A DNA stretch of 64,000 bases from a virus (lineage: Duplodnaviria; Caudoviricetes), in the IMG/VR virus record IMGVR_UViG_3300045952_000362, positions 628 to 64,627 of that record; one strand, given 5' to 3'. The position numbers were made by a program, and so were the translations under genes. Below, in pieces: positions 14,746 through 57,381 of this stretch. Numbering within the stretch: position 1 is the first letter of the stretch; each line of letters starts with the position of its first letter. The notes beneath the pieces are model-generated. The model was not told the DNA's origin. It worked only from the letters and a program-made list of their open reading frames with translations, and searched no databases.

Positions 14746-14758
14746 GCGGGAGGCGAGA

Positions 14759-42987: not shown

Positions 42988-43216
42988 AGCCCGTTCCCGG
43001 CCCCCCGGCAAGACGTCCGGCGGGGCCGGGAGACGCGCCCCCGCCCCCGGTTTCGGGGCCGCAAGGGGGCGTTAATGGCCAAGGCCCCCCCGCCCCCGCC
43101 CGCCCCGGCCCAACCTGCCGGCCATTAGCGGTCCTATACGGGCCTGAACGGCCCCGCCCCGGCCGGTTGGAACGCCCCCGGAACGGCCCCCGCCCCGCGA
43201 CCGTTAATTGGGTTTG
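42935..43216. repeat. GC-rich phased island 3, at the convergence of the two arms
   Basis: A/T steps at about 43052, 43063, 43073, 43081, 43112, 43125, 43136, 43147, 43169, 43182, 43205, 43214; GGGGCGTTAATGG 43066-43078. Confidence 0.8.
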
Positions 43217-45321
43217 GCGGGCGTCCGTCGCCGCAACACGACGACGTGCGCGGGCCGCGTCAACTCCTCGGGCGTGTCATACAGACGAGCTGCGTGAAGG
43301 TTGTGCAATATGTACGGCGACAGCCGCCACATGAAACGGAACGACGTGCCTTTCTTCTCTACGACTTGCAGCAAATGCAAATCGTCCAGCATGCGACGGA
43401 TGGTGGCATTCGGATACGCGATGTCGGTAGCGAGTTCCACACTGGTGCAATAGTCCTTGTCGGTCGGGCAGCGTTTGTAGATCGCGCGGATGAGATCTTC
43501 CTGTCGCTGCGCCACGGTGTCCAACATAACCTTCACCGCCACGCGGTAGTCGGCCTCGGAGACTTCGCGTCGCCCATGCACCCATGCGAGAGCGCGACAG
43601 AGCTTCGACAGTTGCACCCCCAGACGACTGCCGACCTCGGCAAACGGTCGGCCGATGATGTGCTCGCCTCGGAAGTCCTTCGACACCGTGCCGCGGATGC
43701 GGGCACCGAACCGTGCCAGCGCGATGATGCGTCGCTGATACTCTTGCGACAACGTGGGCACGGGGCCGCGAGGCGCATTCAAGAACGCCGAGGTGACCTC
43801 GGCCAGTTCCTTTTGCATCGCGCTGCTGCGGTCCACATTCTCGATGGCTCGTTGAATGATCTGCTCCTCGCTGTCGTGTTGCAGATTGTCGGCGATGGTG
43901 ACCTTCAAGAACCGTTCGCCGAGCGACGCGTGTCCCTCGCCCAAGTCGTAGATGCGCGGGGTGACACCGGCGATGAACCCGAAACTGCTCTCGTAGCTAC
44001 GTTCGACTCCGTTGCCGAAGATCTTGCCGCAGCGCCCGTCGTACGCGTCACGGAAGATGCCGAAGATCTCGCCTTGGTCCAGGTCGCGCATCTCGAACAC
44101 CGGGGTGAAATCTTTCACGGTCAACAGCTTGCCATTCAGTCTGGGGATGAGCGACGGGTCGCTCTGCCCTTGCCAGTTGGCTCCGGAGATCAGCGCATGC
44201 GGTGTCAGGCTGGACGTGAAGAAAGAGTCCTGCCACGTGGACAGCGCCATCAAGATGGCCGTCTTCGCCGATCCGGGCGGCCCCACGAGGAACAACCACA
44301 GGGGCGGCCCCTCGATCTTCAACGCAAACGCACACGCCAGTGTAATGTCGATGGCGGCCGTATCCTTCAGGAACAGCCACTTGTTGAACACCGCGTGCAC
44401 TTCGGCGAGCGTGGCTGTTTTCTTCTTCGGTTCCTCTTGCGCGAGCTTCCCTTTCTTCAGCACCACCACCTTGCGGCGGTCTGTGCCCTCGCGACGGGGG
44501 TTCGGTCGGAAGAGCTTGTGCAGCTTCTCGAGACAGATGGCGGGGGTGTCTCGTTTGACGGCTCCGTAGACAATCCAATCGCGCGTGTCGAACCCACTCG
44601 GGAGTTCGGCGGGCCAGTGCGTGAACGTGACACTACGCGCCACACCGCGCAACCGCTTCGCTGCCAGCTCCTCGCCGCTGTCGCCGGGTTCGTCCAGATC
44701 GTACAGGGTGTGCACGTCGCGCCCTTTGAATCTCGAGACCCACTCCGGCTTGAACGTGCCGGCACCCGGCAACCCCAACACGACGCCGGGTTTGTCGAGT
44801 GTGCGCAGCAACCAGTTCAACGCGATGGCATCCCACTCGCCCTCGCACAGATACACCGGGTCGTTGGGGCGGGCCGCCAACTCCTGGGACCCGACGAGAC
44901 CGACATCGCAGCCAGCGGTGCTGCGCATCTGCTTCTTCTCGAGGTCGTAGGTGCGTAGATCGTGCAGCTTGCCTCGCTCATCTCGCACCGGCAGCACATA
45001 GTGCGCCCCGTCCCACCCGAACTTCCACGCCTTGAACGCCGCGATGGGGAGTCCGCGGTGCTTAGCCAATGCCGCCATCTTCGCGGGCCGCTCCCGCACG
45101 TCGCGGTAGAGCTCCATCGCCATCCCCAGATACTTCGCCAGTCCGCCCCCTTCGCCGAGGGTCTTCGAATGCCACGCTCCCGTCTTCGTATTGAAATAGA
45201 ACTTGTCAAGCTTCCCGGTGAACGGACAGTCCGCAATCAGTTCGTCACCGCTCTGCCGTTTGAACTCTACGCCATGGGCCGCGTAGGGTCGCGCCTTTGG
45301 GAAATCGTCCACGTCAATCAC
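43204..45321 (-). CDS. Primase-helicase (TOPRIM + AAA+/P-loop + C-terminal wHTH)
   Basis: VYLCEGEWDA and YDLDEPG TOPRIM motifs; LVGPPGSAKT Walker A; FRDAYDG. Confidence 0.88.
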   Translation of the reverse strand: MIDVDDFPKARPYAAHGVEFKRQSGDELIADCPFTGKLDKFYFNTKTGAWHSKTLGEGGGLAKYLGMAMELYRDVRERPAKMAALAKHRGLPIAAFKAWKFGWDGAHYVLPVRDERGKLHDLRTYDLEKKQMRSTAGCDVGLVGSQELAARPNDPVYLCEGEWDAIALNWLLRTLDKPGVVLGLPGAGTFKPEWVSRFKGRDVHTLYDLDEPGDSGEELAAKRLRGVARSVTFTHWPAELPSGFDTRDWIVYGAVKRDTPAICLEKLHKLFRPNPRREGTDRRKVVVLKKGKLAQEEPKKKTATLAEVHAVFNKWLFLKDTAAIDITLACAFALKIEGPPLWLFLVGPPGSAKTAILMALSTWQDSFFTSSLTPHALISGANWQGQSDPSLIPRLNGKLLTVKDFTPVFEMRDLDQGEIFGIFRDAYDGRCGKIFGNGVERSYESSFGFIAGVTPRIYDLGEGHASLGERFLKVTIADNLQHDSEEQIIQRAIENVDRSSAMQKELAEVTSAFLNAPRGPVPTLSQEYQRRIIALARFGARIRGTVSKDFRGEHIIGRPFAEVGSRLGVQLSKLCRALAWVHGRREVSEADYRVAVKVMLDTVAQRQEDLIRAIYKRCPTDKDYCTSVELATDIAYPNATIRRMLDDLHLLQVVEKKGTSFRFMWRLSPYILHNLHAARLYDTPEELTRPAHVVVLRRRTPAKPN

Positions 45322-47438
45322 GCCGCCACCTTGTCCATGAACTTAATCTTCTTCGCCTCATGCCAATACTCGTGCGTCCGAACCAACTTCATCTCAACGG
45401 GAAGGGGCTTCGGCAATCCGAGCAGCTTGGTATCCATCTGCATGGCACGGATGACATCCTTCATCAGCCGCACGCAGTGCAACTCTTCGGGGACCTCGAC
45501 CACGATCTCATCGTGAATGGTCAATAGCAACCGCGGCCCGTCTGCCCACTTGGTCCGCAGCATCCGGTCCACGTTGACCAACGCGTTCTTCATTACATCC
45601 GCTGCCGATCCTTGGATCAGGTAGTTCACAGCGCGGTACGCCCAGTCCGGTTCGAACTCGTACCGGCGACCGTAGGCGTTGTAGATCTCGCCTTCGGCCG
45701 TCGCCAGATTGATCATCTTGTCCATGAAGCGTTTGACACCGGGCAGCTCCGTCTCGTACTGCTCGATGAATTCGATCGCCGCTTCCATACTCGTCTTCAG
45801 CAGCGCCGCCATTTTCTTCGGGCCGCCTCCGTAGAGTTTGCAGAACATGATCAGCTTGGCGCACTTGCGATAGTACTCCGCGTGCTCCTTGAAGTCCTTC
45901 CGATTGCCGAAGACCCGTCGCGCAATGTCACCGTGGAAGTCAATGCCGGCGAGCAACGACGCCTGCATCTTCTTCTCGCCTGACATGAACGCGAACAGCC
46001 AGACCTCGATCTGGGAGTAGTCCGGCAAGTACCACACATAGCCGGGTCGGGGGCCGAACGCTTCTCGCGGCCGCGATTGAATATCGGCCTTACGCCGACC
46101 CGTGGTGGCCGACGCCACTTGCATCAGGTTGGGGTCGGAGCACGACAGACGCCCGGTGACCGTACCGGTCTGCCGGTAGTTGGGGTGCAAGACGTAGACG
46201 CCCTTGTCCTCGCGCACCCAGTAGCGTTCGTAGACCTCCAGGAAACTGGAGATGGTCTGGTCGGCCGCCTTGTACTCCAATACCGCCTTGGCCAACGGAT
46301 CCGGCGGCCGTTTGAGCGCCACGCATCGCCGCACACCTGAGTCGTCGGTGCTGTAAATCTTTTTGTAGCCGTACTTCTTCCTCTTCCGCCACAACGCATC
46401 GGGCACGTCGTTGCGCTGCACCACGTAGCCGGTCGCCATCTTCAAGAGGTGCTCGCCGTTCAACGAGTAGTTGCGCAGCCCGGTCTTCTTGTTGACGGTC
46501 TCCGTGTGGTTGGGCACGTGGCCCCGGTCTTCGTAAAACATCTTCGCCATCTGCGGCGTGCTGTTGTAGTTCTTCCCGGCAGCACCCTCGCGGTCAGCGA
46601 TCTTGACTTGCTTGCTCTTGTAGTCCTCGTAGAAGTCTTTCAGCTTGCGGACGACCGGCCGGTGGACTCGCGTGCCGTGATCCTCCATGCGCTTCAACAC
46701 CCAGAACACTTCATGCTCGCGGGCGCAGACCTCGCGCATGCGCTTGTCTTTCTGGATCGCCGGCATCCACTTCTGCCAGAACACCATCGACCGGATGGCG
46801 TCCCAGATGGCGTACTCGTTGCAGAGGTCTTCGTCCGCCATCCAGTAATCGGCCTTCACCGGATCGCGGCCACCGACGACCTCCGTGCCGTAGGACCACC
46901 GCATCTTCTTCGCCAGCAGCCGAGCACGGTGGGTGGATTTCTTCAGTTTCTTCTCGTCGTCCTCCGTGATGCGCAGGTGCTTCTTCGCCAACGGCTTCAA
47001 CGCGTAGGTGAGTTCACCCCCAGCGGTGTAGGTGTGGGCCACGATCATGGTGTCGGTGATCTTGCCTTGCACTTGGATGCCGTCGAACTGCGCCATCAAC
47101 AGATCGAACCGGGGGTTGTGTCCGATCTTCTCGATGGCGGGGTCTTCCAGGATGCTGCGCACCTTGTCGTGGTCGCTGCGCTTCCATGTCACCGCCCGTG
47201 TCACTGGGTCGACCTTGCCCCGCACCGACGCGGTGTTGCCCTCTTCGTCGCAGAACGAATAGAGGAACGGCCGTGCCGGCACGATGCGCCGCACGACATC
47301 TTTCTGTGGTGCCTTCTTGTTTCCGAAGTTGTACGTCACCTCCCGATACGAACCCCACCCGTTGAGTCCCGTCGCCTCCGTGTCGAAGGCCACGCGACGT
47401 CCCGTGAGACCGAACGGCAGTGCGCGCTTAATCAGCAT
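45318..47438 (-). CDS. polA: Family A DNA polymerase with 3'-5' exonuclease
   Basis: FDTEATG, HNPRFD, TVTGRLSCSDPNLMQV, DYSQIE, RKCAK..YG, NYLIQGSAAD, LTIHDEI. Confidence 0.96.
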   Translation of the reverse strand: MLIKRALPFGLTGRRVAFDTEATGLNGWGSYREVTYNFGNKKAPQKDVVRRIVPARPFLYSFCDEEGNTASVRGKVDPVTRAVTWKRSDHDKVRSILEDPAIEKIGHNPRFDLLMAQFDGIQVQGKITDTMIVAHTYTAGGELTYALKPLAKKHLRITEDDEKKLKKSTHRARLLAKKMRWSYGTEVVGGRDPVKADYWMADEDLCNEYAIWDAIRSMVFWQKWMPAIQKDKRMREVCAREHEVFWVLKRMEDHGTRVHRPVVRKLKDFYEDYKSKQVKIADREGAAGKNYNSTPQMAKMFYEDRGHVPNHTETVNKKTGLRNYSLNGEHLLKMATGYVVQRNDVPDALWRKRKKYGYKKIYSTDDSGVRRCVALKRPPDPLAKAVLEYKAADQTISSFLEVYERYWVREDKGVYVLHPNYRQTGTVTGRLSCSDPNLMQVASATTGRRKADIQSRPREAFGPRPGYVWYLPDYSQIEVWLFAFMSGEKKMQASLLAGIDFHGDIARRVFGNRKDFKEHAEYYRKCAKLIMFCKLYGGGPKKMAALLKTSMEAAIEFIEQYETELPGVKRFMDKMINLATAEGEIYNAYGRRYEFEPDWAYRAVNYLIQGSAADVMKNALVNVDRMLRTKWADGPRLLLTIHDEIVVEVPEELHCVRLMKDVIRAMQMDTKLLGLPKPLPVEMKLVRTHEYWHEAKKIKFMDKVAA

Positions 47439-47841
47439 TCGCGTTCAACCACGAGATCGTGCGGCACCGTTTGCAAATGAAGTTCTCGTGGCACTTGCAG
47501 GGTTGCGTTTCCCAGTAGCGCATCCACGAGCGCATGATCTCTTCTCGTCTGGTCAGCCAGATGTGGAAGAAAGCGAAGTAGTTCGCAGCGTCCTTTAGTC
47601 TCGAGACCGGCGGATCGCTGTTGACGTGGCCGTGTATGCAGAGGTGTTGCAGCGCCGTGGTCTGCTTGTCCAGCAGATTGCCCAGCACCTGAAATGGTTG
47701 CTGGTTCCACGTCACGCAGCTGTCCAACACATTGAGGAGGGCGACGCCGGTGGGGGCGTAGTCGCTCTGTCGGCTGGCGATGACAGAGAGGGCGTCGTCG
47801 TAGAATTGCGAGATCGCGTCGTACTGCTCTTTCAGATTCAT
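47428..47841 (-). CDS. Nucleotide-modification-associated (Nmad1/DUF1599-like) all-alpha protein
   Basis: IASRQSDYA..N..LLDK..RLKDAANYF pattern. Confidence 0.55.
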   Translation of the reverse strand: MNLKEQYDAISQFYDDALSVIASRQSDYAPTGVALLNVLDSCVTWNQQPFQVLGNLLDKQTTALQHLCIHGHVNSDPPVSRLKDAANYFAFFHIWLTRREEIMRSWMRYWETQPCKCHENFICKRCRTISWLNANAD

Positions 47842-47861
47842 GGGACGAGTCTCCTGCAAAA

Positions 47862-47896
47862 CGGGAAGGAGGCGAGCCCGAAGGCCCGCCCCCCCG
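47862..47896 (-). terminator. Hairpin with cUUCGg loop downstream of SSB-like gene
   Basis: Minus strand GGCGGGCC-TTCG-GGCTCGCC..CCCGTTTT. Confidence 0.6.
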
Positions 47897-47906
47897 CACC
47901 CGCGAC

Positions 47907-48938
47907 TTACTTCTTCGCCTTCTTCTTGCCCTTGTCCGCCGTCTTCGCCGTTTTCTTCTTCGGCTCATCCGGCGTGTCGAGCACTTCGAGGATGCGATCC
48001 GCCGGCAGCTTCACCTTCTTGCCGTCTTCGGTCGTGACCTTGATAGCGTTCTCGTCTTCGAAGATCTCGGTGACCTCACCGATCTTCTTGCCATCCTTGG
48101 TCTTGACCCGGACACGCGACCCGACGGACAGCGCGACGGATTCGGAGTCGTCCTCTTCTTCGTCGTCGGACTCCTCTTCGTCTTCGCTCTCCTCGTCGTC
48201 TTCCTCTTCGTCGTCGGATTCTTCTTCCTCATCCGACTCCTCGTCCTCGTCTTCCTCCTCGTCTTCTTCGGCCGCCTTCTTCTTCGCAGCCTTGCCCTTT
48301 TTCTTCTTGGGCTCGTCCTCTTCCTCGTCCTCCTCTTCCGCATCTTCCTCCTCGTCGTCGTCGTCGGACTCTTCCTCCTCGTCGTCCGACTCCTCCTCGG
48401 ATTCGTCACCGTCTTCTTCCTCGTCGTCCTCCTCCTCGGCCGACTCGGCGTCCTCGACTTCGTCTTCATCGAGCAGACGGTTGATGCGCACGTTCTGGAA
48501 GTCGCCGTTGGTGACGAGCTTGATGCGGCAGACCGGCTTCTCCTTCTCGACTTCCTTCATGATGTTCGGGATGTCGGCTTCGAAGTCGTCGATCTGTGCG
48601 ATGTCAAAGCCCATCGCCCGCAGATCGCGCAGGAAGTACGTCCAGCCGTCCTCGTTCACCAGACGCTGGAATGCCTTCTTGGTCTTGCCACGGTACTCGC
48701 CCTCGAGGAACTTCCACGAGGTGACGGCCTGCATGTTGCCGGCACTGCTGGGCGCGATCTCGAGCTTCGTGGCACGGGCGACGTACGACCCGTCCTCGAA
48801 CTCCTCGAACCCCTTCGACGCATTGCTCGCAACGGTCTCGCGGAACTTGTTGGCCTTCTTGAGGAAGTCCTTCAGGTTCACCTTCTTGCCCTTGCCGTCG
48901 CCCTTGCTCTTCTGCTCTTTCGGTGCTTTCTTCGCCAC
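47907..48938 (-). CDS. SSB-like protein with very long acidic tracts and C-terminal KOW/SH3-like domain
   Basis: FEEFEDGSYVAR..WKFLEGEYRGK..FQNVRI OB-like N-terminus; about 110 aa D/E-rich region; VGSRVRV..GEVTEI; next to Sak4-like ATPase. Confidence 0.65.
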   Translation of the reverse strand: MAKKAPKEQKSKGDGKGKKVNLKDFLKKANKFRETVASNASKGFEEFEDGSYVARATKLEIAPSSAGNMQAVTSWKFLEGEYRGKTKKAFQRLVNEDGWTYFLRDLRAMGFDIAQIDDFEADIPNIMKEVEKEKPVCRIKLVTNGDFQNVRINRLLDEDEVEDAESAEEEDDEEEDGDESEEESDDEEEESDDDDEEEDAEEEDEEEDEPKKKKGKAAKKKAAEEDEEEDEDEESDEEEESDDEEEDDEESEDEEESDDEEEDDSESVALSVGSRVRVKTKDGKKIGEVTEIFEDENAIKVTTEDGKKVKLPADRILEVLDTPDEPKKKTAKTADKGKKKAKK

Positions 48939-48975
48939 GTTGCTCTCCTAGGGTAAATGGACTTGAGGGTCCGTC

Positions 48976-49878
48976 CTACTTCTTCAGCTTGAATGTCGTT
49001 TTCTTCTTGTCGCTCTTCGTGCGTCGCCGATCCTCTTCGACGACATCCTCCTCCGTAGTCGGCTCGTACCGATTGTGAAACGCGTCGTTGAAGTTCTTCC
49101 ACGCCTCGGCGGCCGAGTGCCCCATGTCGATATTCTTGAGGCGTCGACCGTCTGGTGTGCGGAAACGATTCTCGAACCGGTGCCCGGCCGCCAAGTGCTC
49201 GTCGCCAGCGACAGTGAGCACCCGACGGTCGTCGTCGTACTGGTAACACGCGTAGATGTCGATCATCGGTTCGACCACCTCGCGCATCTGCTTCGGCATC
49301 GTCGGCATGATGCGGTCGTACTCGCCGCCCTCCCGACGGCGAATGCCCTGCTCGTTCGCGTGCGACAGCAGCACGACCCCCTTGCCGGTCTGCGTCAACG
49401 CGTTCATGAAGTCGGAGAGCTTCCGTCGGCACTCCGACCACCCCTTGCCCCACTCCGCATCGCCGAGCGCGTCCACCCCCAGGTCCAAGCAGGTGGCGAC
49501 CTCGGCCAATCGATACAACAGATCGACCGTATCGATCGTGACGGTGCGGAACGACTTGTCCTTCTTCAACGCCCGCAGTACCCGTTCGGCTTTGAGCCAC
49601 GTCTTCAGGTCCTCTTTGACCAGACGCAGTCCACGGTAGCCAACCTCGGTCGCGAGGTTCAGGTTCTTCGGGGCGTGCGACAGCATGCTTGTCTTGCCGA
49701 TCTTCCGGTAGCCGTAGATCAGCACGAGGCAGTCTGACAGGTTGTCGACCGGCTCCGTGACGGACGACGGCAGCTTGTACGGACCACTGTCCTCGCCCCC
49801 GTCTTCGGTGCCGTGCTTCTTTTTCTTGGTCAACACCTTCTCGGTGCGACCGCCTTTTTCTTTCCTCACCACCGCCAC
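48976..49878 (-). CDS. Sak4-like/AAA_24 ATPase (recombinase)
   Basis: LIYGYRKIGKTS, TVTIDTVD, WGKGW, VVLLSH; RBS GAGGAGG before GTG 49878. Confidence 0.85.
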   Translation of the reverse strand: MAVVRKEKGGRTEKVLTKKKKHGTEDGGEDSGPYKLPSSVTEPVDNLSDCLVLIYGYRKIGKTSMLSHAPKNLNLATEVGYRGLRLVKEDLKTWLKAERVLRALKKDKSFRTVTIDTVDLLYRLAEVATCLDLGVDALGDAEWGKGWSECRRKLSDFMNALTQTGKGVVLLSHANEQGIRRREGGEYDRIMPTMPKQMREVVEPMIDIYACYQYDDDRRVLTVAGDEHLAAGHRFENRFRTPDGRRLKNIDMGHSAAEAWKNFNDAFHNRYEPTTEEDVVEEDRRRTKSDKKKTTFKLKK

Positions 49879-49939
49879 GTTGTCCTCCTCGGCGAGCGCA
49901 TCGGCCCACCCTGTTTCGATGTAATCTTCCGCTGCCACG

Positions 49940-51253
49940 TTACCGACGAGGCCGCAACATGCGACCACGACGTCGCTGCTGCACTTCGTCCTCCGACTCA
50001 AGACCGTACGCCACGCCGGTCTCATACAAGAGATCGTGCGGGTAGGTGCCGTTGGTAGCGATCCATTCGATCGCGCCTCCGCGCATCGCCTCGGGCGTCA
50101 ACACCCAGAACGGCATCTGACGCGCCGTGTGCTGTCGCGGCAGTTTGTCCACGGGCCGATACTCGTGATACAGGTAGCTCGGCTCCGTCTCGGTCGAGAC
50201 CCCGTGGATGGGATGGTCCTTCGGGTTCTCGCAGTTGGCGCAGCGCTCGTACGGGTTCGGCCACTTGCCGTCCGCGGGCCAGCTCTCGAGACCGGCGAAG
50301 GCCGCACGCTTCTGCATGTCGCTGTGCGACCCGAGGTAGCGCCCGAAGATCGGCGGGCACTTCATGTTGACCTCGCGTTGCATAAGCTGGGCCACGCAGT
50401 TCACTTCCCAGTCCATGATGTGCTCGAGACGGTTGCCCAGCACCCCTTTGAGCGCGACGTAGTTGTAGTCGCAGTGGATGTAGGTCTGCGTGCCCATCCA
50501 CAGGACTCGTCGCGCATCCTGCCACGGAATGCCGGCATCGACCAACGCCGCGTACAACGCCTTGCCCTCGTCCAGATAGGCTTGGATGGCGCCACGTAAA
50601 TCGTTGGCCCGGTCCTGCTGGTTGATGAACGACTCGATCGGCGTCCAGTCGGAGATGCAGACCTCGCGGCCGGTGACCACGGTGGGGTAAGGACCGCCGG
50701 GGCCTTCCGGGATACGGGCCGCCCCACGCTTCGCCTCGTCGGCCTCACAGGCGCGTGTAATGGTTTCTGGCATGGTCCAACGCCGGTGCCGCCAATCGTT
50801 GTCGCGGCCCCCGTGTTGCATGAACCCGGCCCCGACCCGTGTGCGCACGATCTGGTGGGTCTCGGCACGGCTGCACCCGTCGACGCAGAACGAGAACGTG
50901 AACCGTTCCAGTGCCTGCTGCAACGTCTTCCCGGCGAAGCACATCTCGACGTAGGCTTGCTGGTCCGGCTCGAGACGGCACCAGCCCGTCTTATGCTCCC
51001 AGGAGTTGATATGCTTGACGTGCTCCAGGTAGCCGCCATTGAACCCGCACGCACGATCGACCGTGCGGCTCGGGTCGTCTCCCCAGTTGCTGACGAGCGA
51101 ATCGTACAGCGACGGGAACATGTTGGTCTCGATCTGCGGCCAGTTGTCCAGTGTCACCACAAGCGACTCCGGCCCGCGGACCACGTCCGTGGACGGCATC
51201 TCGCCGGTGTGGACCGCATGGGGGCGGTGTTTGGCATCTGCGTAATCGGGCAT
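49940..51253 (-). CDS. Divergent ThyX-like flavin-dependent nucleotide-modifying enzyme
   Basis: FTFSFCVDGCSRAETHQIVRTR, YAALVDAGIPWQDARRVL, NRLEH..WEVN resemble ThyX; RHRx7S motif degenerate. Confidence 0.75.
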   Translation of the reverse strand: MPDYADAKHRPHAVHTGEMPSTDVVRGPESLVVTLDNWPQIETNMFPSLYDSLVSNWGDDPSRTVDRACGFNGGYLEHVKHINSWEHKTGWCRLEPDQQAYVEMCFAGKTLQQALERFTFSFCVDGCSRAETHQIVRTRVGAGFMQHGGRDNDWRHRRWTMPETITRACEADEAKRGAARIPEGPGGPYPTVVTGREVCISDWTPIESFINQQDRANDLRGAIQAYLDEGKALYAALVDAGIPWQDARRVLWMGTQTYIHCDYNYVALKGVLGNRLEHIMDWEVNCVAQLMQREVNMKCPPIFGRYLGSHSDMQKRAAFAGLESWPADGKWPNPYERCANCENPKDHPIHGVSTETEPSYLYHEYRPVDKLPRQHTARQMPFWVLTPEAMRGGAIEWIATNGTYPHDLLYETGVAYGLESEDEVQQRRRGRMLRPRR

Positions 51254-51263
51254 GGTGGGTCTC

Positions 51264-52244
51264 CTACTCCTTCTCGTTGAAACGCAACTCGCCGAGGGTA
51301 CGGACGAGTGTGAACGGTTGAATCTGCTCCGGTGTAAGTCCGAGTGTGGTCTCCCGCCGAAGCAGATAACACGGGATACCGAGGCGAGCGAACCCAGCCA
51401 AGTGGTTGGGGTCATCGTCGACGACGAGCTTGATCTGATGGTGCACGTTGTCCTGCAACATGCGCTCCGTTTTGTTGGACGCCCACCACAGATAGTCGAA
51501 CGGGAGTTTGTGATCCTGCAGCCACAGCAACGTGTCCGTGTACAGGTTCGGGTATTGGTCGATGGGACGAGACGTGAGCAGGATGATCTTCAACCCCTGC
51601 TCGCGCAAGTGTCCGAGGAACGCGGCCGCATCGTCGAATGCCGGCAGCTGTCGCTTGGCCCCGGAGACCCGGAACTCGTGTTTGATGTTCTGCCAATCGC
51701 TCTCGTCCAGTTCGAGTGCGTCTCCGTTGATCCACAGCGCATCCCGCTCCACGTTGTCGATGCGTCGCAACAGTTTCCGTTGGTAGGGGAACTTCGACCG
51801 AAGATACGCGCACATGCCGCCGATAAAGTTGCACAGCACTTGGTCGATGTCCACGACCGCGCACGGCCCCGTCAACTGTCCCGACCACTCCTCGGAGTAG
51901 CGCTGGCGCACCACCGCGGTCTTCCGCCAGTAGGCTTCGATAGCCCGCTCCGGAGTGAACCCGTGGATCTGCAGCAACGACATCACACACTTCAGGATGT
52001 CCGCGAGCTCGTCGTCGAGATGCGCTTGGTTGTCCCGGATGGCGGGCCGTCGATGCTTCTTCCATTTCATGGCGCGCAGGAGCTCGTGCAACTCTGACTC
52101 CGTGTTCAGCACGAACTCGCTAGTCTGGGCCGCCAGCTCCTCGGTGTTCTTGGGCTGCTGCCGGAACAGCGTATTGAACGCCCGCTGGTCCTCCCAGATG
52201 TCGCGCAGGGCCTTGCCCAGCATGGCGTCGTCCATCGTCGGCAT
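51264..52244 (-). CDS. MazG/dimeric dUTPase-like pyrophosphatase fused to HAD 5'-nucleotidase
   Basis: ESELHELL..WKKHR..DDELADILK; VVDIDQVL, LLTSRP, VDDDP. Confidence 0.8.
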   Translation of the reverse strand: MPTMDDAMLGKALRDIWEDQRAFNTLFRQQPKNTEELAAQTSEFVLNTESELHELLRAMKWKKHRRPAIRDNQAHLDDELADILKCVMSLLQIHGFTPERAIEAYWRKTAVVRQRYSEEWSGQLTGPCAVVDIDQVLCNFIGGMCAYLRSKFPYQRKLLRRIDNVERDALWINGDALELDESDWQNIKHEFRVSGAKRQLPAFDDAAAFLGHLREQGLKIILLTSRPIDQYPNLYTDTLLWLQDHKLPFDYLWWASNKTERMLQDNVHHQIKLVVDDDPNHLAGFARLGIPCYLLRRETTLGLTPEQIQPFTLVRTLGELRFNEKE

Positions 52245-53155
52245 CACATCACACCCCCACGCGACTCGTAGACCGAGATGTGTCGGGACATCGCCCACGT
52301 CCGCACCGCCCGGTAGGACTCGTGCGCCAGTTCGTCGGTGCGCCACCGGGCGAAGCGTCCGAACATGAAGATGTCGAAGATCTCCAGCGACGCGATGCTG
52401 GTCTCCGTGTGCTCGTTGGGGTAGATCTTGCCGGGCACTACGCCGAAGCCTTCGACCCCGAATGCGTTGCGGTCCAACGACTCGCGAAAGCATTTCCCCT
52501 CGCGCCACGTCTCTCGGTACCACGGCACCTTCGGGTTCGAAATGTAGTTGACCCGCATGCCGTTGTTCCACATCGACGGGTGCTGCGCCTTCCACCACGG
52601 CAGTTCGCTGGTGTGGAAGAAGATGGGCCGGTAGCGCAACGTGTTCGCCATCGCGTCGTAGGCCCCGTGGCGCATCAGCCGCAGGAACGCGTAGAGGGGA
52701 ATGGTGGACAGCAGGTAGTCGTAGTGCTCCTGTCGGCCGCCCGCCATCAACAGCGTGCGCGTGTGTCCGTCGATGCATTTGATCTTCTGGTCGTACTCCA
52801 CCCGGTCCGGCGGCAGGGTCACCGAGTACCCTCTCATGCGACGTGAAAACTGCGCTCGCCAGTCGCCCCCGTCAAGTTCTTTCCCCACGCGGGCCTTGTA
52901 GCGGGCTACACGTTCGTCGGTCGCGGTGCGTCCGTCGACCAGTGTCGTGACGTTGAACTCCTCGTGCTCGTCTGGCGAGAATCCCTGCAACGGTTCCCAC
53001 AGGTACTGCGGCCCGAGCATGCGGGAGCTGACCGTCGGTGCCTCCTTTCGCCAATCGAACACACGTGCCGACGGCAGCACGCTGTGGATGAGGCGGCCGA
53101 GGAATCCTCCGCCGACGATAATGATACGTGGATGCGCCGCTCGTAGGGTGGTCAT
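52244..53155 (-). CDS. FAD-dependent oxidoreductase (UDP-galactopyranose mutase-like architecture)
   Basis: IIIVGGGFLG dinucleotide-binding motif, YDYLLSTIPL, FGRFARW. Confidence 0.65.
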   Translation of the reverse strand: MTTLRAAHPRIIIVGGGFLGRLIHSVLPSARVFDWRKEAPTVSSRMLGPQYLWEPLQGFSPDEHEEFNVTTLVDGRTATDERVARYKARVGKELDGGDWRAQFSRRMRGYSVTLPPDRVEYDQKIKCIDGHTRTLLMAGGRQEHYDYLLSTIPLYAFLRLMRHGAYDAMANTLRYRPIFFHTSELPWWKAQHPSMWNNGMRVNYISNPKVPWYRETWREGKCFRESLDRNAFGVEGFGVVPGKIYPNEHTETSIASLEIFDIFMFGRFARWRTDELAHESYRAVRTWAMSRHISVYESRGGVM

Positions 53156-53157
53156 CG

Positions 53158-54195
53158 TTATACGTCCTCCAACTCTCTGAACACTGTCTTCCGTTTTGCA
53201 TGGCGACTGAAATCGCCGTTGGCACAGATGGGAAGGAACCCACACGTGCCGTATTTGTTCTCGCAGTGGTTGTCGTTGTCGTAGTGCGGGGCCTCCCCTC
53301 GGAACCACTTGATGAAATCCTCGAGCACCGCATCGCGCTTCTTCAACTCGCGTGCGAGATCCTTCTTGTCGATGGACATCTTCAGCCGAATGAAATAGTG
53401 CTCCGGTCGCTTCGACACGTCCGCTGCCACACGGGCCGCGAACACCGGCAACGACTCCCCCTTCTTCGGCGCGAGGTTTGGTTTCCGTACGATGTTGTAG
53501 AGCACACCCCCCGGCGTCTTGTTCTCCATCGCGAGGATAGCGCCGAGATACATATTGACTTGGATGTTGCGCGGCAGGACATCCACCAGATTGGATTCAC
53601 CCTGCTCGCCCAGACGTGACTTGGTCTTTGTCTCCAGCAGCCACGTACGGTTGTCCTTGTCGGGATTGAATCGTCCGTCCATCTTGCCTCGGAAGAAGGT
53701 GTTCAGCCATCCGAAGACCGTGGTGGGGACTTTGAACTGGTGCTCCAAGGACAACCACTTCACTTTCGTGAGGTCCTTGTGCCAGTAGGAGAAGTATACA
53801 GGCAGGATGGCGTTGGCCAAGAGGATGCACATGTCCAACGCTTGCAACGTCTCGGGGGCCGCCTTGGGGTTTTCTGCGCGCCACTGCTTCTCGATACGCA
53901 GCGTCACCTTCTTGATGTCCTCGCGTTTGGGGAGCGAAGTCAACTTGCGCTCTTGGATCTGGGTGTAGAAGATCTCGAGCGCTGCGTGGATCACCGTGCC
54001 GAAGATCGAGCTCGGGCCCACGCGAGTGTCTGTCCATCCCAGCAACGATAGCCGGGCCGCCTCTCGGCAGTTCTTGAACGTCTGCAACAACCCCTGCGTC
54101 ACGCCGTCGCGCTCGGGGTTATAGAACGCGGGGTCGATGCCGTGGGGGTTCGCCGGGGGCACCACGGTCCTTGGTTTGACCAGCTTCAGTTTCAT
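53158..54195 (-). CDS. PD-(D/E)XK exonuclease (RecB/Cas4-like)
   Basis: FKNC, FGTVIHAALE, GKMDG..LLETKTK, QVNMY, C-terminal C..CGF..IC. Confidence 0.88.
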   Translation of the reverse strand: MKLKLVKPRTVVPPANPHGIDPAFYNPERDGVTQGLLQTFKNCREAARLSLLGWTDTRVGPSSIFGTVIHAALEIFYTQIQERKLTSLPKREDIKKVTLRIEKQWRAENPKAAPETLQALDMCILLANAILPVYFSYWHKDLTKVKWLSLEHQFKVPTTVFGWLNTFFRGKMDGRFNPDKDNRTWLLETKTKSRLGEQGESNLVDVLPRNIQVNMYLGAILAMENKTPGGVLYNIVRKPNLAPKKGESLPVFAARVAADVSKRPEHYFIRLKMSIDKKDLARELKKRDAVLEDFIKWFRGEAPHYDNDNHCENKYGTCGFLPICANGDFSRHAKRKTVFRELEDV

Positions 54196-54361
54196 TACCC
54201 GTTCTCCGGATTCCGACGTGCGGCTTTCTCGCGCGCCTGACGCAGCATGTCCTTGGCCGTGGCGTAGTTGACCTTGAACACCTTCTGGATTTCCGAGATC
54301 GCATCACCGTCATGCTCGACGGCATTCGCGATCGTGTTGATACGAATGGCCTCCGACTTCG

Positions 54362-55108
54362 TCATAGCTTCTCCTCGAAGAGGTCCAGCTGCCTGGACCG
54401 GTAGAATGTCATCGTTGTGCGGTGCACCAAGATCGCCACGTTCCTTCTTGTATCGCCTCGCTCCGCCCCGTCGCACAGCAGACACTTGGAGCACGTGGTG
54501 CGGTGTCCGCCTTCGTCGCTGGCAGGGCAGAGGGTCTCGTCGTGCATCAGAGCACTGTCGTCCGTGCGCACACGGAACGTGCGGTAGCCCTTGGCCAATG
54601 CCTCACGCTGCTCCGCTTCGGTGTCCACGCTGGCCATGCAGATCTCGCGCATCTCGAGAGCGCACGTGCGCCAATGGTGGGTGTAGGCGGTCCACCCCCG
54701 AGCCCGCCGCAGGAGTCCCCGCCACCAGTCGACCGGCACGGCTGCAGGGTCCCCATAGGCCCCAATGCGCAACAGCCCGTCCCGCACGGCGTGCGACACC
54801 CGAGGCATGGCGGCCGCCGAGAGGTCCTCGTAACGCCCCGCCCGCCACGCCCGAAACACGGCGGCAGGGGCGTGGGCCACCGTCACGTAACAGGAACGCT
54901 GAAGGCCGTTAATGCCTCGGTGGGCGCAGTCCCCGCAGATCGCCCGGTCGTCGCCGTCGCGCACGGCCACCAGCGGATGCTTGTCGGTGCGGAGGATCCA
55001 CAGCTGCGTCATGGGGCCGGTCTTCCGGTTGGCCGAGTCCTCGGTCGCAATGACCATAATGGTGGCTTCGGGATCCAACAGCGATGCGCCGCGATACAAG
55101 ATCTTCAT
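54362..55108 (-). CDS. Conserved Cys-rich phage protein (DUF7227-like)
   Basis: ANRKTGPM, ICGDCAHR, CYV, RIGAYGDPAAVP, YTHHW, MASVD, CPAS..CSKCLLC. Confidence 0.65.
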   Translation of the reverse strand: MKILYRGASLLDPEATIMVIATEDSANRKTGPMTQLWILRTDKHPLVAVRDGDDRAICGDCAHRGINGLQRSCYVTVAHAPAAVFRAWRAGRYEDLSAAAMPRVSHAVRDGLLRIGAYGDPAAVPVDWWRGLLRRARGWTAYTHHWRTCALEMREICMASVDTEAEQREALAKGYRTFRVRTDDSALMHDETLCPASDEGGHRTTCSKCLLCDGAERGDTRRNVAILVHRTTMTFYRSRQLDLFEEKL

Positions 55109-55521
55109 GCCTCCTCCGGCCGGGGCGCAAACAGCCCACCATACTGCAACACGCGATCGAGACGGTTGCCCTCGGGCGTCCGCCATGCCAAGTGTTCCGG
55201 GTTCCAGCACCATGCGTTGATACATTCGACGTGGGCCGCCTCCAACCCTTCACGATCGGAGAGCGGCACTCCGTCAACCAACGACAGTGCCACACGCGCC
55301 ACGTGCACCACGGGACTGTCTTGGTGCGGACCGAGCCACACCACCGGACGCGACGGCCCCTTCTTCTTGCCCCGGTGCACCTTCTGGGAGTGTGCTCCCA
55401 CCCAGCGCCAGCATCCGTTGGGTTCAACGCGCAGATGCGCCCGCATCCGTTCGATGAGACCGCCCTTGCCGCGAATGCGCTTGAACGTTTCCTTCTGTTT
55501 CTTTCGTCCCCGGCGTTTCAT
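55105..55521 (-). CDS. HNH endonuclease-like protein
   Basis: GCWRWVG, AAHVECINAWCWNPEHL..EGN. Confidence 0.8.
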   Translation of the reverse strand: MKRRGRKKQKETFKRIRGKGGLIERMRAHLRVEPNGCWRWVGAHSQKVHRGKKKGPSRPVVWLGPHQDSPVVHVARVALSLVDGVPLSDREGLEAAHVECINAWCWNPEHLAWRTPEGNRLDRVLQYGGLFAPRPEEA

Positions 55522-55886
55522 TCACCCCTCGAAAGATGGATGACGGGGATGCCGGCAGCACGCGCATACCGCACAGTGGCCCACGTGCCGGAGCGAATGA
55601 TTTCTTCGTCGGTCGCCGGTGCTGCGATCAGGATCTGTGAGGCGGCAACGATCTTCCGGTTCCGTCCAAGCGGATCGCGACCAGCCGGAAAGCAAACGGC
55701 ATCAACACGGGGGACAAAGAGTTTGACGAGCGATGCAGCCTGACGGTCGGCACCGATTGCTCCGCCGTGGTTGAACGTTTTTGTTCCACCAAGGATGGAC
55801 CGGAGCAGCAGTCGGAGCTGCATCTTCTGCTCGTGCGACATCCCCTGCCTCGTGCCGGTGAACCCGACCGACTGAATGTAACGCAT
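55518..55886 (-). CDS. SLOG-superfamily protein
   Basis: VGFTGTR, HGGAIGAD, RNRKIV, RSGTWATVRYA. Confidence 0.8.
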   Translation of the reverse strand: MRYIQSVGFTGTRQGMSHEQKMQLRLLLRSILGGTKTFNHGGAIGADRQAASLVKLFVPRVDAVCFPAGRDPLGRNRKIVAASQILIAAPATDEEIIRSGTWATVRYARAAGIPVIHLSRGE

Positions 55887-56389
55887 CAGAACCTCCCCTG
55901 CGCCCACATGCCGATACCCACAGCGTCCCACGCATCCTTCTCGATGCCGAGGTCGTCGCACTGCTTCCGTCCAAGCTTCCGCCGCAGCCGATCGATCACG
56001 ATGGTCTTCGGCAGCTGCCCTTTCCACTGGCTCGGCTTCACCAATCGAAAGTCCTTCGCTTGGCAGGACATGAAGTCGCAACACATCACGCCCACGAGGA
56101 ACACCAACGACTGCAGGTCGCCGGTCTGCCAGCCCATCGCACGCGAGACACTGCCTTGGAACTCCGGCATCTCGCACACCACACGCGCCCCTACGAGTCC
56201 GTGCACCTCTTGCACGAGCTCCTGGGAGAGTGCCATCGCTCGCTCCGGCAACGTGCCCTTGCGGGGTGCGCCCACAAGGCCGACACGCACCAGCCGACTC
56301 CCGCGCCAGTAGGCGTAGCCGGTGCTGCCGAGTCCCGGGTCGATCGACATCAACACCTCACCGGGCGGCATTGCGATCTCCTCCGTCAC
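55886..56389 (-). CDS. RuvC-like Holliday junction resolvase
   Basis: SIDPGLGSTG, VCEMP, PSQWKG, DAWDAVGIG. Confidence 0.85.
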   Translation of the reverse strand: MTEEIAMPPGEVLMSIDPGLGSTGYAYWRGSRLVRVGLVGAPRKGTLPERAMALSQELVQEVHGLVGARVVCEMPEFQGSVSRAMGWQTGDLQSLVFLVGVMCCDFMSCQAKDFRLVKPSQWKGQLPKTIVIDRLRRKLGRKQCDDLGIEKDAWDAVGIGMWAQGRF

Positions 56390-56559
56390 ACCACTCCGGA
56401 CTCAGCCACGACCGTTCGCAAGACCAGCTGAGTCTCGGCGCACCCGTGCGTGTGGAGTACAAACCGTTTGGTCGGTACCCCATACGCGTCCCACATCGGT
56501 AGCAATACTTGGCACGTAGATGCAACCGGAGCAGGAGCTTCCCGAACCACAGGAAGATT

Positions 56560-57381
56560 TTAACGCGCATTGCGGCCCCCCAGTCGCGTCTTGATGCCGC
56601 CGTCTTCGTATTTCAGAATCGTGGACCACGGTGTCATCGGGTCCGACAGTCCCATGTAGATGGGGAAGTCGCGACACAGTGCTTGCGTGGACATCGTGTT
56701 CTTCGAAATGCGATCGGCGATCAGTCCCTGACCCCCCGGCTCGTAGCGGGCCTTGGCGAATGGCGCATCGGGGCAGACACGGAACTGCCGGATGCCCTGT
56801 TGGATCATCCACATGACGAGGTGCCGGTCCTCGTAACAGTAGACGTCCTTGGGATGCTCGTAGTCGGCATACAGATCGCCCGGCACTCCCCACAGCATCA
56901 TGGAGATGCGAGGGTAGCTGCGCAACCCACCAACGACTTCGGCACCTTCGACCTTGTCCTTATCCCAGTGCGCCGCGGTGCCGTGCATGCCGGCCATGAT
57001 GACCGTCTGCCCACTCCACTTTTGATACGCGTACCACGCGCACACGAGGTTGTCCAACGCCTCGCGTGTGTAGGTGGCGTTGTCGTCCGTCTGGATCACG
57101 AGGTCGTAGCGCTCCGGCTGACAGGCGCGACGAATCAACTCGCGCGCCCATCCTACGCTGCCACCAGGATTCTTCACCGGCACGAGCTTCGCCTTCTTCG
57201 GTCGCAGCCAGTCGTACTCGGGATTGCGGTGGGACGGGGCGTGGTCCACACCGATGAAGACGCCGGGGGCGTCCAGGTAGCTCATCTTTCGTTGCCACAG
57301 GCGCTGCATACGAACGCCCCGGCCCCGTGTCGGGATGCAGACGGCGTAACGGATCTTCGTACCTTTATGAGTTGCGATCAT
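56560..57381 (-). CDS. GT-A glycosyltransferase resembling TAGT/GREB1-like DNA base glycosyltransferases
   Basis: VCIPTRGR, SVGWARELI, QTDDN, YEDRHL, PGG; located among DNA metabolism genes. Confidence 0.6.
   Translation of the reverse strand: MIATHKGTKIRYAVCIPTRGRGVRMQRLWQRKMSYLDAPGVFIGVDHAPSHRNPEYDWLRPKKAKLVPVKNPGGSVGWARELIRRACQPERYDLVIQTDDNATYTREALDNLVCAWYAYQKWSGQTVIMAGMHGTAAHWDKDKVEGAEVVGGLRSYPRISMMLWGVPGDLYADYEHPKDVYCYEDRHLVMWMIQQGIRQFRVCPDAPFAKARYEPGGQGLIADRISKNTMSTQALCRDFPIYMGLSDPMTPWSTILKYEDGGIKTRLGGRNAR

Follow-up and report, generated by a model that had tools for sequence, protein, structure and literature searches.

A conserved gene module of a rewired ThyX-like enzyme, a MazG-HAD fusion and a UGM-like flavoprotein in an uncultured soil phage, a candidate pathway for DNA hypermodification

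In the genome of an uncultured soil phage (61% G+C), we identified a tightly linked enzyme set amid the DNA-replication genes, the core of which is a trio of translationally coupled genes encoding a small flavoprotein, a fusion of two nucleotide-degrading domains, and a ThyX-like protein with an altered active site. Judging from sequence, we lean toward a nucleotide-pool pathway as the function of the trio, by which a C5-modified deoxyuridine would replace part or all of thymidine and would be glycosylated in some lineages. The features considered here, with positions in the window (the whole stretch of 64,000 nucleotides that was analyzed), are as follows.

52244..53155, minus strand: mini-UGM-like FAD flavoprotein, 303 aa, with an N-terminal GGGxxG Rossmann motif; family members have ~270-300 aa
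51264..52244, minus strand: fusion of a MazG-type NTP pyrophosphohydrolase and an NT5C-type HAD 5'-deoxynucleotidase, 326 aa, assigned from Pfam and catalytic motifs
49940..51253, minus strand: 437-aa enzyme of the ThyX fold whose active site is rewired, with an invariant family motif and N- and C-terminal extensions
56560..57381, minus strand: GT-A fold glycosyltransferase (GT) of 273 aa with a distant resemblance to TAGT, accessory to the module
47428..47859, minus strand: 143-aa protein abutting polA, with its likely start at the ATG of residue 7; membership in the module is doubtful

Results

The coupling of the three minus-strand genes, noted in a preliminary description of this DNA, is shown directly; the start of the fusion gene overlaps the stop of the flavoprotein gene. 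We then surveyed synteny in 33 related viral loci, scored by the DNA available upstream of the ThyX-like gene. The fusion adjoined the ThyX-like gene in all 27 loci with upstream DNA, and flavoprotein, fusion, and ThyX-like gene occurred in that order in 25 of the 25 with enough of it, while the six loci without fusion or flavoprotein begin <250 nt from the ThyX-like gene. The trio forms a conserved module that, as first suggested, is undescribed. Variable tailoring genes adjoining this core in the relatives encoded radical SAM/SPASM and SDR proteins and a DNA methylase; an ACP occurred as a fusion with the ThyX-like protein.

The ThyX-like protein matched Pfam Thy1 (PF02511) at 62.5 bits (cut-off 24.8), and ThyX was its sole fold match. 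This score, together with several retained ThyX residues, makes dTMP synthesis a possible activity. Where canonical ThyX has the signature RHR-x7/8-S-x-R-Y, the window protein reads RTR-x8-G-G-R-D, such that the His is replaced by Thr138, the Ser by Gly148 (or His147), and the Tyr by Asp151, with both arginines of RxR and the later Arg retained. These three replacements had been noted in the preliminary description; additionally, the upstream His of the canonical H-x-S-x-x-E-H segment, which we take to be the folate-stacking His53 of T. maritima, is an invariant Leu111, followed by a retained Glu (E116). The motif Ser is not known to be essential in T. maritima ThyX. When T. maritima ThyX (TM0449) is aligned, the invariant R248 falls on the Arg of 'ARIVLP', the likewise invariant R275 on that of 'LNLRAD', and N264 on the Asn of 'TVNARS'; we presume that these C-terminal-half residues bind the nucleotide, the 'LNLRAD' Arg by contacting uracil O4. 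The family motif THQxVRTRxGAGFMQHGGRDNDWRHR was invariant in 34 sequences with 50-78% identity to the window protein. The family is thus under strong constraint, and at each of the four altered signature positions its members show the same new residue with little or no variation.

In the fusion, Pfam MazG covers residues 46-109, with a marginal score of 22.8 bits (cut-off 22), and NT5C covers residues 130-254 (27.9 bits, cut-off 24.8). Little or no variation was seen among 20 family members in the MazG acidic residues E51, E79, and D82 and in the HAD motifs I-IV (D132xD134xV136, T224-S-R226, K258, D276-D277). By its motifs, the fusion retains both catalytic sets intact, and its substrate is predicted below.

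The flavoprotein, a member of a phage-only family, has the FAD Rossmann motif and the overall fold of UGM, clearly its best fold and profile match; its closest structures include the NAD(P)H-binding eukaryotic UGM and renalase. With 303 aa it is smaller than solved UGMs (365-510 aa), aligning over 290 of 473 positions with ~180 UGM residues missing, and it matched no Pfam family, GLF included, at E<=0.1. In A. fumigatus UGM, 'LYFPEDNCPFYRATI' is the counterpart of the invariant Y204, Y213, and R214; the family's Y..YR falls on the segment 'YFPEDNCPFYR', the 'Y..FYR' of which we take to be the substrate-binding Tyr and Arg. A tentative first choice for its role is that of a redox or flavin-adduct partner in the ThyX-like step; an NDP-sugar mutase seems less probable, and some other function slightly less so again.

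For the GT, the acidic DxD-type motif TDDN and an N-terminal xVxIPSxGR were invariant in 12 members. Its Atlas model (pLDDT only 0.62) reached TM 0.67-0.71 to GT2 clusters and 0.69 to a TAGT cluster, and Atlas feature matches were likewise to GT2 and TAGT clusters. TAGT (PF20691) had zero matches to the window GT or its genome, and in five of the 12 relatives remained below threshold (19.6-23.2 bits versus 27.5), covering profile positions 1-91 only. The gene lies 3.4 kb from the trio in this phage, and the translational coupling of the flavoprotein is with the nucleotide enzymes rather than with the GT; in relatives the GT is usually located between the ThyX-like gene and an acidic-protein gene. 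It was present in five of 10 whole records, and the flavoprotein was kept in the five without it, one of which is 98% complete. Thus, of the TAGT-like glycosyltransferase initially proposed, the GT-A fold and the linkage to the module hold, but the similarity to TAGT is sub-threshold and the gene is optional. The same distribution bears on the mutase-like enzyme that had been suggested as a possible furanose source: UGM is indeed the best match, but with an accessory GT and a flavoprotein kept in 25 of 25 loci, furanose supply to the GT does not fit as its only role, and we regard a furanose-donor role as doubtful.

The 143-aa protein had been labeled Nmad1-like, for which the sole lead was an Atlas feature score of 0.88. 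We found no support for this label: DUF1599 (PF07659), which we take to be Nmad1, matched none of 10 family members at E<=1 and nothing in the genome at E<=10, and the gene, restricted to loci with a polA of the window's type, goes with that polA and not with the trio. The family conserves a K/R-x-x-DY-x-P motif in 10 members and matched PHROG 6802 in five and PHROG 1485 in four of the 10.

Elsewhere in the phage genome we found no ThyA, TET/JBP dioxygenase (Tet_JBP), or dCMP deaminase, so that, among the enzymes seen, the ThyX-like one alone could provide the transferase with a handle. A Walker-A scan exposed no kinase P-loop and no dNMP kinase, including any of T4 type. Tet_JBP was also missing from four GT-bearing relatives, and ThyA from these and one GT-less relative.

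Distant versions of the trio, consisting of an R[TSN]R ThyX-like protein, a mini-UGM flavoprotein, and a HAD phosphatase, were detected in the cultured Pbunavirus, Wifcevirus, mycobacteriophage Onyinye, and a Rhizobium phage; no homolog of this GT was found in four cultured carriers. In Pbunavirus Ab28, gp75 matched the ThyX-like profile (hhalign 97.0%; ~23% identity), gp81 matched the flavoprotein profile (96.0% over 246 columns) and was seen only by profile methods, and gp73 is a HAD_PNKP phosphatase, a different HAD subfamily, for which comparison with the fusion gave no significant similarity (hhalign 8.6% and 6.6%). For Wifcevirus, WFC gp070 reached hhalign 94%; homology of its phosphatase, like that of Pbunavirus, to the MazG-HAD fusion was not demonstrable. 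Onyinye gp78, gp80, and gp86 matched the flavoprotein (profile E 2e-8), the HAD part (E 1.7e-22), and the ThyX-like protein (hhalign 98.9%), respectively. In some GenBank records, the Pbunavirus or Wifcevirus flavoprotein homolog is annotated as UGM.

Homologs of gp81 are present in Pbunaviruses F8 (95.8% identity) and 14-1 (97%), as are ThyX-like homologs. A 2025 preprint reports sugar-like hypermodified thymidines from these two phages, specifically thymidine-derived nucleosides of 362 U (F8) and 390 U (14-1) in virion DNA, with about a quarter of T modified, in TG context; its available part names no genes for them (PMC12191111). Such a context and extent speak more for a sequence-specific step acting after replication than for simple replacement through the pool. 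By mass calculation, 362.34 corresponds to dU plus a reductively C-linked pentose and 390.35 to dU plus hexose minus water; both are also isomeric with O-linked 5-hmdU derivatives, so mass alone is not decisive.

Discussion

In the pathway that we propose, the MazG domain would cleave a canonical pyrimidine dNTP, its predicted substrate, to the dNMP, and the HAD/NT5C domain would dephosphorylate this competing dNMP to the nucleoside, such that it could not re-enter the pool. With its fold and nucleotide arginines retained but its folate-stacking and RHR..S.RY residues replaced, the ThyX-like enzyme may, we infer, add a hydroxymethyl, hydroxyl, or larger oxygenated group at C5 rather than a plain methyl, with the flavoprotein as a putative obligate partner in the base chemistry. 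Host kinases, invoked because the genome showed no kinase P-loop, would produce the triphosphate, and the phage PolA would incorporate it. Where the TAGT-like GT-A enzyme is present, as it is here and in roughly half of the relatives, it would then decorate the base in DNA, with different tailoring enzymes presumably in its place in other lineages, and DNA so modified would resist host nucleases. The preliminary description had arrived at a flavin-dependent pyrimidine route followed by glycosylation; the rewired ThyX, the linked GT, and the homologs in F8 and 14-1, with their sugar-like thymidines, are in keeping with this, although the accessory nature of the GT limits the glycosylation part.

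ThyX and UGM both act via a covalent flavin-N5 iminium adduct, carrying a methylene in ThyX and the opened sugar C1 in UGM (covered in part by PMC8989533). Conceivably, though we hold this quite improbable, the two chemistries have merged, with a sugar-derived chain on the flavin iminium being attacked by C5 of dUMP to give a C-C linked 5-(polyhydroxyalkyl)- or C-glycosyl-deoxyuridine. If true, this would be a new way of building DNA bases and would attach genes to a question still open for therapeutic Pseudomonas phages.

We consider it unlikely that the locus serves ordinary thymidylate supply, with a divergent but genuine ThyX, the flavoprotein as an NAD(P)H reductase or helper, the fusion in pool housekeeping (e.g., dUTP removal), and a GT unrelated to DNA. 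Many phages encode ThyX and MazG, according to the available text of PMC7824862, and the Thy1 score (62.5 versus 24.8 bits), the exclusive fold match, the retained arginines, the absence of another thymidylate synthase from the genome, and the NAD(P)H-binding UGM and renalase among the structures closest to the flavoprotein all agree with such a role. It would, however, have to accommodate four signature positions replaced by residues that are invariant or nearly so, an obligate link to a phage-only flavoprotein and to a nucleotidase that would destroy dNMPs, the variable tailoring genes and TAGT-like GT adjoining the core, and the modified thymidine or unexplained RM resistance of cultured phages with the distant trio. 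A cytosine target is clearly less probable than thymidylate supply: MazG would be a dCTPase and the ThyX-like enzyme would make 5-hydroxy- or 5-hydroxymethyl-dCMP for glycosylation by the GT, in a ThyX-fold analog of the T4 and RB69/RL38J1 pathways, yet the Arg aligned with that of 'LNLRAD', the presumed uracil O4 contact, is invariant, the Walker-A scan saw no T4-type dNMP kinase, and the chemistry of distant trio carriers, in the available text, comprises thymidine derivatives only. What recommends it is the naming of the TAGT family for 5hmC systems in its Pfam description, the 61% G+C of the genome, the combination of a TS homolog, UGM, and GTs in glycosylated 5hoC pathways, and the change of the motif Tyr to an invariant Asp, which recalls the Asn/Asp switch of ThyA-type enzymes (available text of PMC13326640).

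Also unlikely is that the flavoprotein acts as a genuine NDP-sugar pyranose-furanose mutase devoted solely to providing the GT with a furanose donor. Its retention in the five GT-less whole records (including that with 98% completeness), the lack of a detected GT homolog in four cultured carriers, the short length and partial alignment (303 aa versus 365-510; 290 of 473 positions), the missing Pfam GLF match, and the coupling with nucleotide enzymes, 3.4 kb from the GT, weigh against it, notwithstanding the UGM fold and profile match and the invariant Y..YR aligned with the presumed substrate segment of the A. fumigatus enzyme. Comparable arrangements lend it some appeal, in that the UGM of Rhizobium phage RL38J1 is proposed to feed DNA galactosylation (available text of PMC13326640), and some GenBank records label a Pbunavirus or Wifcevirus homolog UGM. 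We retain a C5-modified deoxyuridine as the preferred product of the trio.

Comparison with known systems

Relative to canonical ThyX and the PolB UMP/dUMP methylase, the window protein shares the fold and Pfam family and, with T. maritima ThyX, the aligned arginines and Asn; it differs in lacking the upstream His and, within the RHR..S.RY motif, the second-position His, the Ser, and the Tyr, in being ~200 residues longer, and in its obligate flavoprotein and nucleotidase partners. With TET/JBP-associated glycosyltransferase (TAGT) systems, the GT-A enzyme has in common a sub-threshold similarity and a placement amid phage DNA-metabolism genes, whereas the TET/JBP dioxygenase is absent from this genome and four GT-bearing relatives.

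Pbunaviruses F8 and 14-1 (Ab28 numbering) resemble the window phage in having a ThyX-like protein of R-T-R type that lacks the upstream His, a homologous small UGM-like flavoprotein, and a HAD phosphatase close by, beside replication genes. Unlike the window family, which has GGRD and then NDWRHR, their ThyX-like protein keeps Ser/Thr-x-Arg, their phosphatase is of HAD_PNKP type without MazG rather than a MazG-NT5C fusion, and they have no TAGT-like GT; the relative WFC has a large DnaE-type polymerase in contrast to the window PolA. The Pbunavirus chemistry is characterized by masses and a TG context only.

Thymidine replacement of the SPO1, phiW-14, ViI, and M6 type includes a dTTPase and a dTMPase. 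It proceeds, in the available text of PMC8989533, through a ThyA-type dUMP hydroxymethylase and post-replicative tailoring, and the window locus would follow the same logic of canonical nucleotide removal, a TS-type enzyme, and combinatorial tailoring. These systems use ThyA, of which the window genome has no homolog, and neither 5-HMUDK kinase nor aGPT-Pplase, which define such clusters, appeared among Pfam matches of the neighboring genes. A further parallel lies in RB69, DLP3, and Rhizobium phage RL38J1, all with pathways to glycosylated 5-hydroxycytosine: there, according to the available text of PMC13326640, ThyA-type enzymes have turned into flavin-using dCMP hydroxylases alongside phage UGM and GTs, so that a repurposed TS relative with a flavin yields an oxygenated pyrimidine dNMP on which DNA glycosyltransferases then act, with a phage UGM-type mutase also present in RL38J1.

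Genome organization and the replication arm

The window comprised almost the whole of the 64,627-bp virus record, which is rated 100% complete and classed as linear in IMG/VR, and had a G+C content of ~61%. Structural genes were located on the plus strand from ~9.7 to 43 kb, while a replication and nucleotide arm occupied the minus strand beyond 43.2 kb, with the following features:

43204-45321, minus strand: primase-helicase
45318-47438, minus strand: PolA
47428-47859, minus strand: 143-aa protein
47907-48938, minus strand: acidic protein, 343 aa
48976-50025, minus strand: Sak4/AAA_24 ATPase
49940-51253, minus strand: ThyX-like protein (Pfam Thy1)
51264-52244, minus strand: MazG-HAD fusion (Pfam NT5C and MazG)
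52244-53155, minus strand: flavoprotein
53158-54195, minus strand: PD-(D/E)XK nuclease
54362-55108, minus strand: Cys-rich PHROG 2554 protein (PHROG match, E 3.4e-67)
55105-55521, minus strand: HNH endonuclease (PHROG 1872 and 826)
between the HNH endonuclease and the glycosyltransferase, minus strand: RuvC
56560-57381, minus strand: glycosyltransferase
listed after the glycosyltransferase, minus strand: SNF2 helicase

The flavoprotein, fusion, and ThyX-like genes proved to be placed and coupled as the preliminary description had proposed, the spacing of their stops and starts being visible directly in the sequence. Specifically, the stop of the flavoprotein gene shared one base with the start of the fusion (TGATG), the ThyX-like ATG began 10 nt after the fusion stop, and the flavoprotein ATG began 2 nt after the nuclease stop. 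Additionally, the longest Sak4 ORF would run 86 nt into the end of the ThyX-like gene (49940-50025), and the actual Sak4 start probably lies further downstream.

Several other features of the arm were noted. The acidic protein had a very long Asp/Glu-rich tract flanked by two folded ends, and its gene kept its position after Sak4 in relatives; the acidic repeat showed length variants and internal joints in RNA-library contigs, one of which omitted 96 nt at 48215-48312. The HNH endonuclease and PHROG 2554 genes look like insertions into the arm, since tblastn found neither in 33 related loci. A Walker-A scan, which is a crude test, found no nucleotide kinase. At the record ends, a 119-nt block was repeated with 100% identity (window 1479-1597 and 63882-64000), as was a 110-nt block with 99% identity (window 62354-62462 and genome bases 1-110, just before the window), and these blocks flanked dissimilar inserts of ~2.0 kb and 1.4 kb. 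This arrangement looks like assembly round a circular or permuted genome via two versions, from different strains, of a replaceable cassette. The 90% cluster to which the ThyX-like protein belongs held seven contigs, the longest of which, at 120,987 bp, was nearly twice the length of the record and may reflect concatemeric or chimeric assembly elsewhere.

Conservation of the trio among relatives

The gene-neighborhood survey suggested in the preliminary description was run on 33 loci, drawn from an IMG/VR profile scan and an earlier single-protein scan, with G+C contents ranging from 41 to 63%. Synteny was conserved: in 27 loci the fusion immediately preceded the ThyX-like gene, and in 25 the flavoprotein was upstream of the fusion. 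Because the six loci lacking the fusion begin <250 nt from the ThyX-like gene, and the two further loci lacking the flavoprotein begin inside the fusion, the trio was complete wherever DNA was available. The glycosyltransferase was present in 14 of the 33 loci, mostly between the ThyX-like and acidic-protein genes, and in half of the ten whole records; it was not found in five records of 70-98% completeness by the same search that recovered five positive controls, and is thus an optional part of the module.

Other enzymes adjoined the core in particular relatives. A radical SAM/SPASM enzyme was next to the glycosyltransferase in one (L009:12599-13888), and in the clade without a glycosyltransferase, short-chain dehydrogenases and an N6/N4 DNA methylase adjoined polA (L012:14596-15330; L018:13935-14642 and 14642-15277). 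One ThyX-like relative (L032:10001-11530) had at its C terminus an acyl-carrier domain for phosphopantetheine attachment (PP-binding, E 2.5e-10), a hint that some lineages may use a carrier-bound substrate. All of these, including the fused domain, are putatively of tailoring type.

Searches of the genome under study found no ThyA, Tet_JBP, or dCMP deaminase; Tet_JBP was not found in four glycosyltransferase-bearing relatives, nor was ThyA in the same four and one relative lacking the glycosyltransferase. The window stretch was present in soil metagenome runs, and four soil RNA libraries yielded short identical contigs spanning parts of all four genes, which speaks to presence only, not to transcription or modification; stretches lacking such contigs carry no weight.

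Rewired signature residues in a ThyX fold

The ThyX-like protein matched Pfam Thy1 (E 6.1e-17), and its AF2 model (pLDDT 85.4) had structural matches only to ThyX and PolB (Foldseek, E about 1e-7), with the ThyX core spanning residues 23-315. Signature residues were read from an alignment with the canonical ThyX of Bacillus phage Mgbh1, in which the Mgbh1 segments KHLSTLEH ... RHRVGFSFSVQSQRY correspond to TLQQALER ... RTRVGAGFMQHGGRD in the window protein. The loss of the RHR His, the Ser, and the Tyr that had been reported from the sequence was borne out by this alignment, the residues being replaced by Thr138, Gly148, and Asp151, respectively, and the upstream His of canonical ThyX by Leu111. 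Both RxR arginines and the later Arg were retained; in the C-terminal half, R248, N264, and R275 were kept relative to Thermotoga maritima ThyX and two other positions were not. Among 34 aligned members, THQxVRTRxGAGFMQHGGRDNDWRHR was invariant or nearly so, and, judged from this conservation, the changes are selected rather than the product of decay.

The family comprised no fewer than 303 members when clustered at 90%, every one metagenomic. Across 185,579 species genomes, 79 pattern matches yielded no confirmed relative, and hence no host or prophage clue. Searching the PDB with 81 residues surrounding the motif returned spurious matches only. Complex prediction for the ThyX-like protein and the flavoprotein gave a score of 0.00, which is neutral on their pairing.

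The flavoprotein and the MazG-HAD fusion

UDP-galactopyranose mutase (UGM) was the best match to the flavoprotein by three methods. Its model was confident (pLDDT 93.2) and matched 4dsh_B in Foldseek (E 1.2e-13), and the sequence profile recovered TcUGM (E 1.5e-7) and AfUGM (E 1.5e-5). The invariant Y..YR and the GRFASW of the family aligned to YFPEDNCPFYR and GRFGSW, respectively, of fungal UGM. Direct Pfam and PHROG scans gave no match, including none to Pfam GLF. About 180 UGM residues were missing, and the 244 representatives recovered at E<=1e-10 were 270-300 aa throughout; our search found no fused or longer forms, which is weak evidence. The protein is a minimal UGM-like form.

In the fusion, the acidic residues of MazG and HAD motifs I-IV were intact in 20 members, and this retention of the catalytic motifs of both halves argues for an obligately bifunctional enzyme, predicted to act as a dNTP pyrophosphatase and a 5'-nucleotidase.

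The glycosyltransferase and the 143-aa protein

Twelve members of the glycosyltransferase family had in common xVxIPSxGR and an invariant TDDN. The Atlas model matched GT2 clusters (TM 0.67-0.71) and a TAGT cluster (0.69), so that describing the protein as a GT-A enzyme, distantly TAGT-like, is fair, but calling it a TAGT member would go too far: only 5 of the 12 members matched Pfam TAGT, all below the cut-off and over profile positions 1-91 only, and the window protein had no match. Direct Pfam and PHROG scans with the latter were empty, and a PDB sequence and profile search gave chance-level rows only.

The 143-aa protein had been labeled Nmad1-like, a label that was not supported: DUF1599 was not matched at any level and only a weak Atlas lead was found. 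Pfam gave no match, a PDB profile search with the family gave no meaningful one, and in the survey the protein was confined to loci with the polA type of the window. It is not counted as a member of the module.

Distant versions in cultured phages

In INPHARED, matches to the window ThyX-like protein were restricted to three mycobacteriophages (four records, 27% identity), and in a tblastn of 22 window proteins against cultured-phage loci, matches were confined to the ThyX-like protein and the SNF2 helicase. One of these mycobacteriophages, Onyinye, had all three components (L041, MN813687.1 54049-55692; L034:2695-3624): gp78, annotated as an oxidoreductase, matched the flavoprotein profile (E 2e-8), gp80, annotated as a phosphatase, matched the HAD half of the fusion (E 1.7e-22), and gp86, annotated as ThyX-like, aligned to the family at 98.9% in hhalign, with the motif reading RSR. 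The host of Onyinye is Mycobacterium smegmatis mc2 155.

Querying with the Onyinye ThyX-like protein recovered 439 phage records, chiefly from phages of Pseudomonas (290) and Escherichia (27). In Pbunavirus (Ab28 numbering), gp75 had an RTR motif, lacked the upstream His, and reached 97.0% against the ThyX-like family profile, while gp81, a 333-aa hypothetical protein with homologues in 362 phage records, F8 and 14-1 among them, reached 96.0% against the flavoprotein profile (E 4.4e-9, 246 columns). Wifcevirus WFC gp068 had the same ThyX-like motif pattern, gp070 reached 94% against the flavoprotein profile, and gp066, a FabG-like reductase, adjoined the ThyX-like and phosphatase genes. Both genera encoded a HAD_PNKP phosphatase (Ab28 gp73 and WFC gp067); these gave only 8.6% and 6.6%, respectively, in hhalign as candidate homologues of the fusion, and homology is not claimed. 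A Rhizobium phage had an RNR-type ThyX and a weaker flavoprotein relative 2.2 kb apart.

Homologous components thus occur in phages with modified thymidine. In the available text of a 2025 preprint, F8 and 14-1 virion DNA is reported to contain nucleosides derived from thymidine, of 362 and 390 U, which replace about one quarter of T in a TG context and are described as a tetrose sugar-alcohol derivative and a cyclised aldopentose derivative (PMC12191111). Its authors state that Pbunavirus has no known modification genes, and the words ThyX and thymidylate are absent from that text (PMC12191111). For Wifcevirus, the available text of the BASEL expansion describes isolates as insensitive to the tested RM systems, with no known protection mechanism (PMC11990801).

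Proposed pathway and alternatives

We consider a single pathway leading to a non-canonical pyrimidine nucleotide the best reading of the trio. Its product would most likely be a thymidine replacement, since this is the sole chemistry available for the distant carriers. We infer that the three enzymes would act on pyrimidine nucleotide substrates, that a C5 group would be introduced with participation of the flavoprotein, and that the modified nucleotide would enter DNA via the dNTP pool. A simple pool model fits the Pbunavirus pattern poorly: modification there is partial and occurs in a TG context, which argues for at least one post-replicative step in those phages.

Plain dTMP synthesis by the ThyX-like protein appears less likely but is a serious alternative. 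The flavoprotein had been proposed to make a furanose for the glycosyltransferase, and UGM as its best match agrees with this; however, because it is kept in genomes lacking the glycosyltransferase and is coupled to nucleotide enzymes, we favor a role in base chemistry, and consider that of a pure furanose donor the less probable of the two, although a credible minority reading. Within base chemistry, sugar transfer through a flavin iminium, giving C-C linked base products, seems quite improbable, although the masses of 362 and 390 U fit such products and O-linked derivatives of 5-hmdU equally.

Relation to known systems

The module is large and widespread, with at least 303 ThyX-like clusters and 244 flavoprotein representatives. 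Distant versions are carried by Pbunavirus, a genus used in phage therapy, whose recently discovered thymidine hypermodification lacks assigned genes and is targeted by host END nucleases, as well as by Wifcevirus, in which RM resistance is unexplained, and by a phage of Mycobacterium smegmatis. These cultured carriers make the link from gene to modification directly testable, Onyinye offering what would be a convenient non-pathogen test system, and the answer bears on predicting which defence systems restrict such phages.

According to the available text of a 2026 paper, ThyA-fold enzymes bind flavin and hydroxylate dCMP, with arabinofuranosyl or galactosyl decoration following, and RL38J1 is predicted to encode a phage UGM (PMC13326640). 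Our searches of the literature on ThyX, hypermodification or hydroxymethylation, Pbunavirus, and DUF1599/Nmad1 did not turn up any paper in which the ThyX-like protein and the flavoprotein are given a function as a pair. To our knowledge, the characterized phage routes to modified pyrimidine nucleotides all begin with ThyA-fold enzymes or TET/JBP dioxygenases. If the proposed pathway is true, entry through a ThyX fold together with a dedicated UGM-like flavoprotein would constitute a third, independent route to modified pyrimidines.
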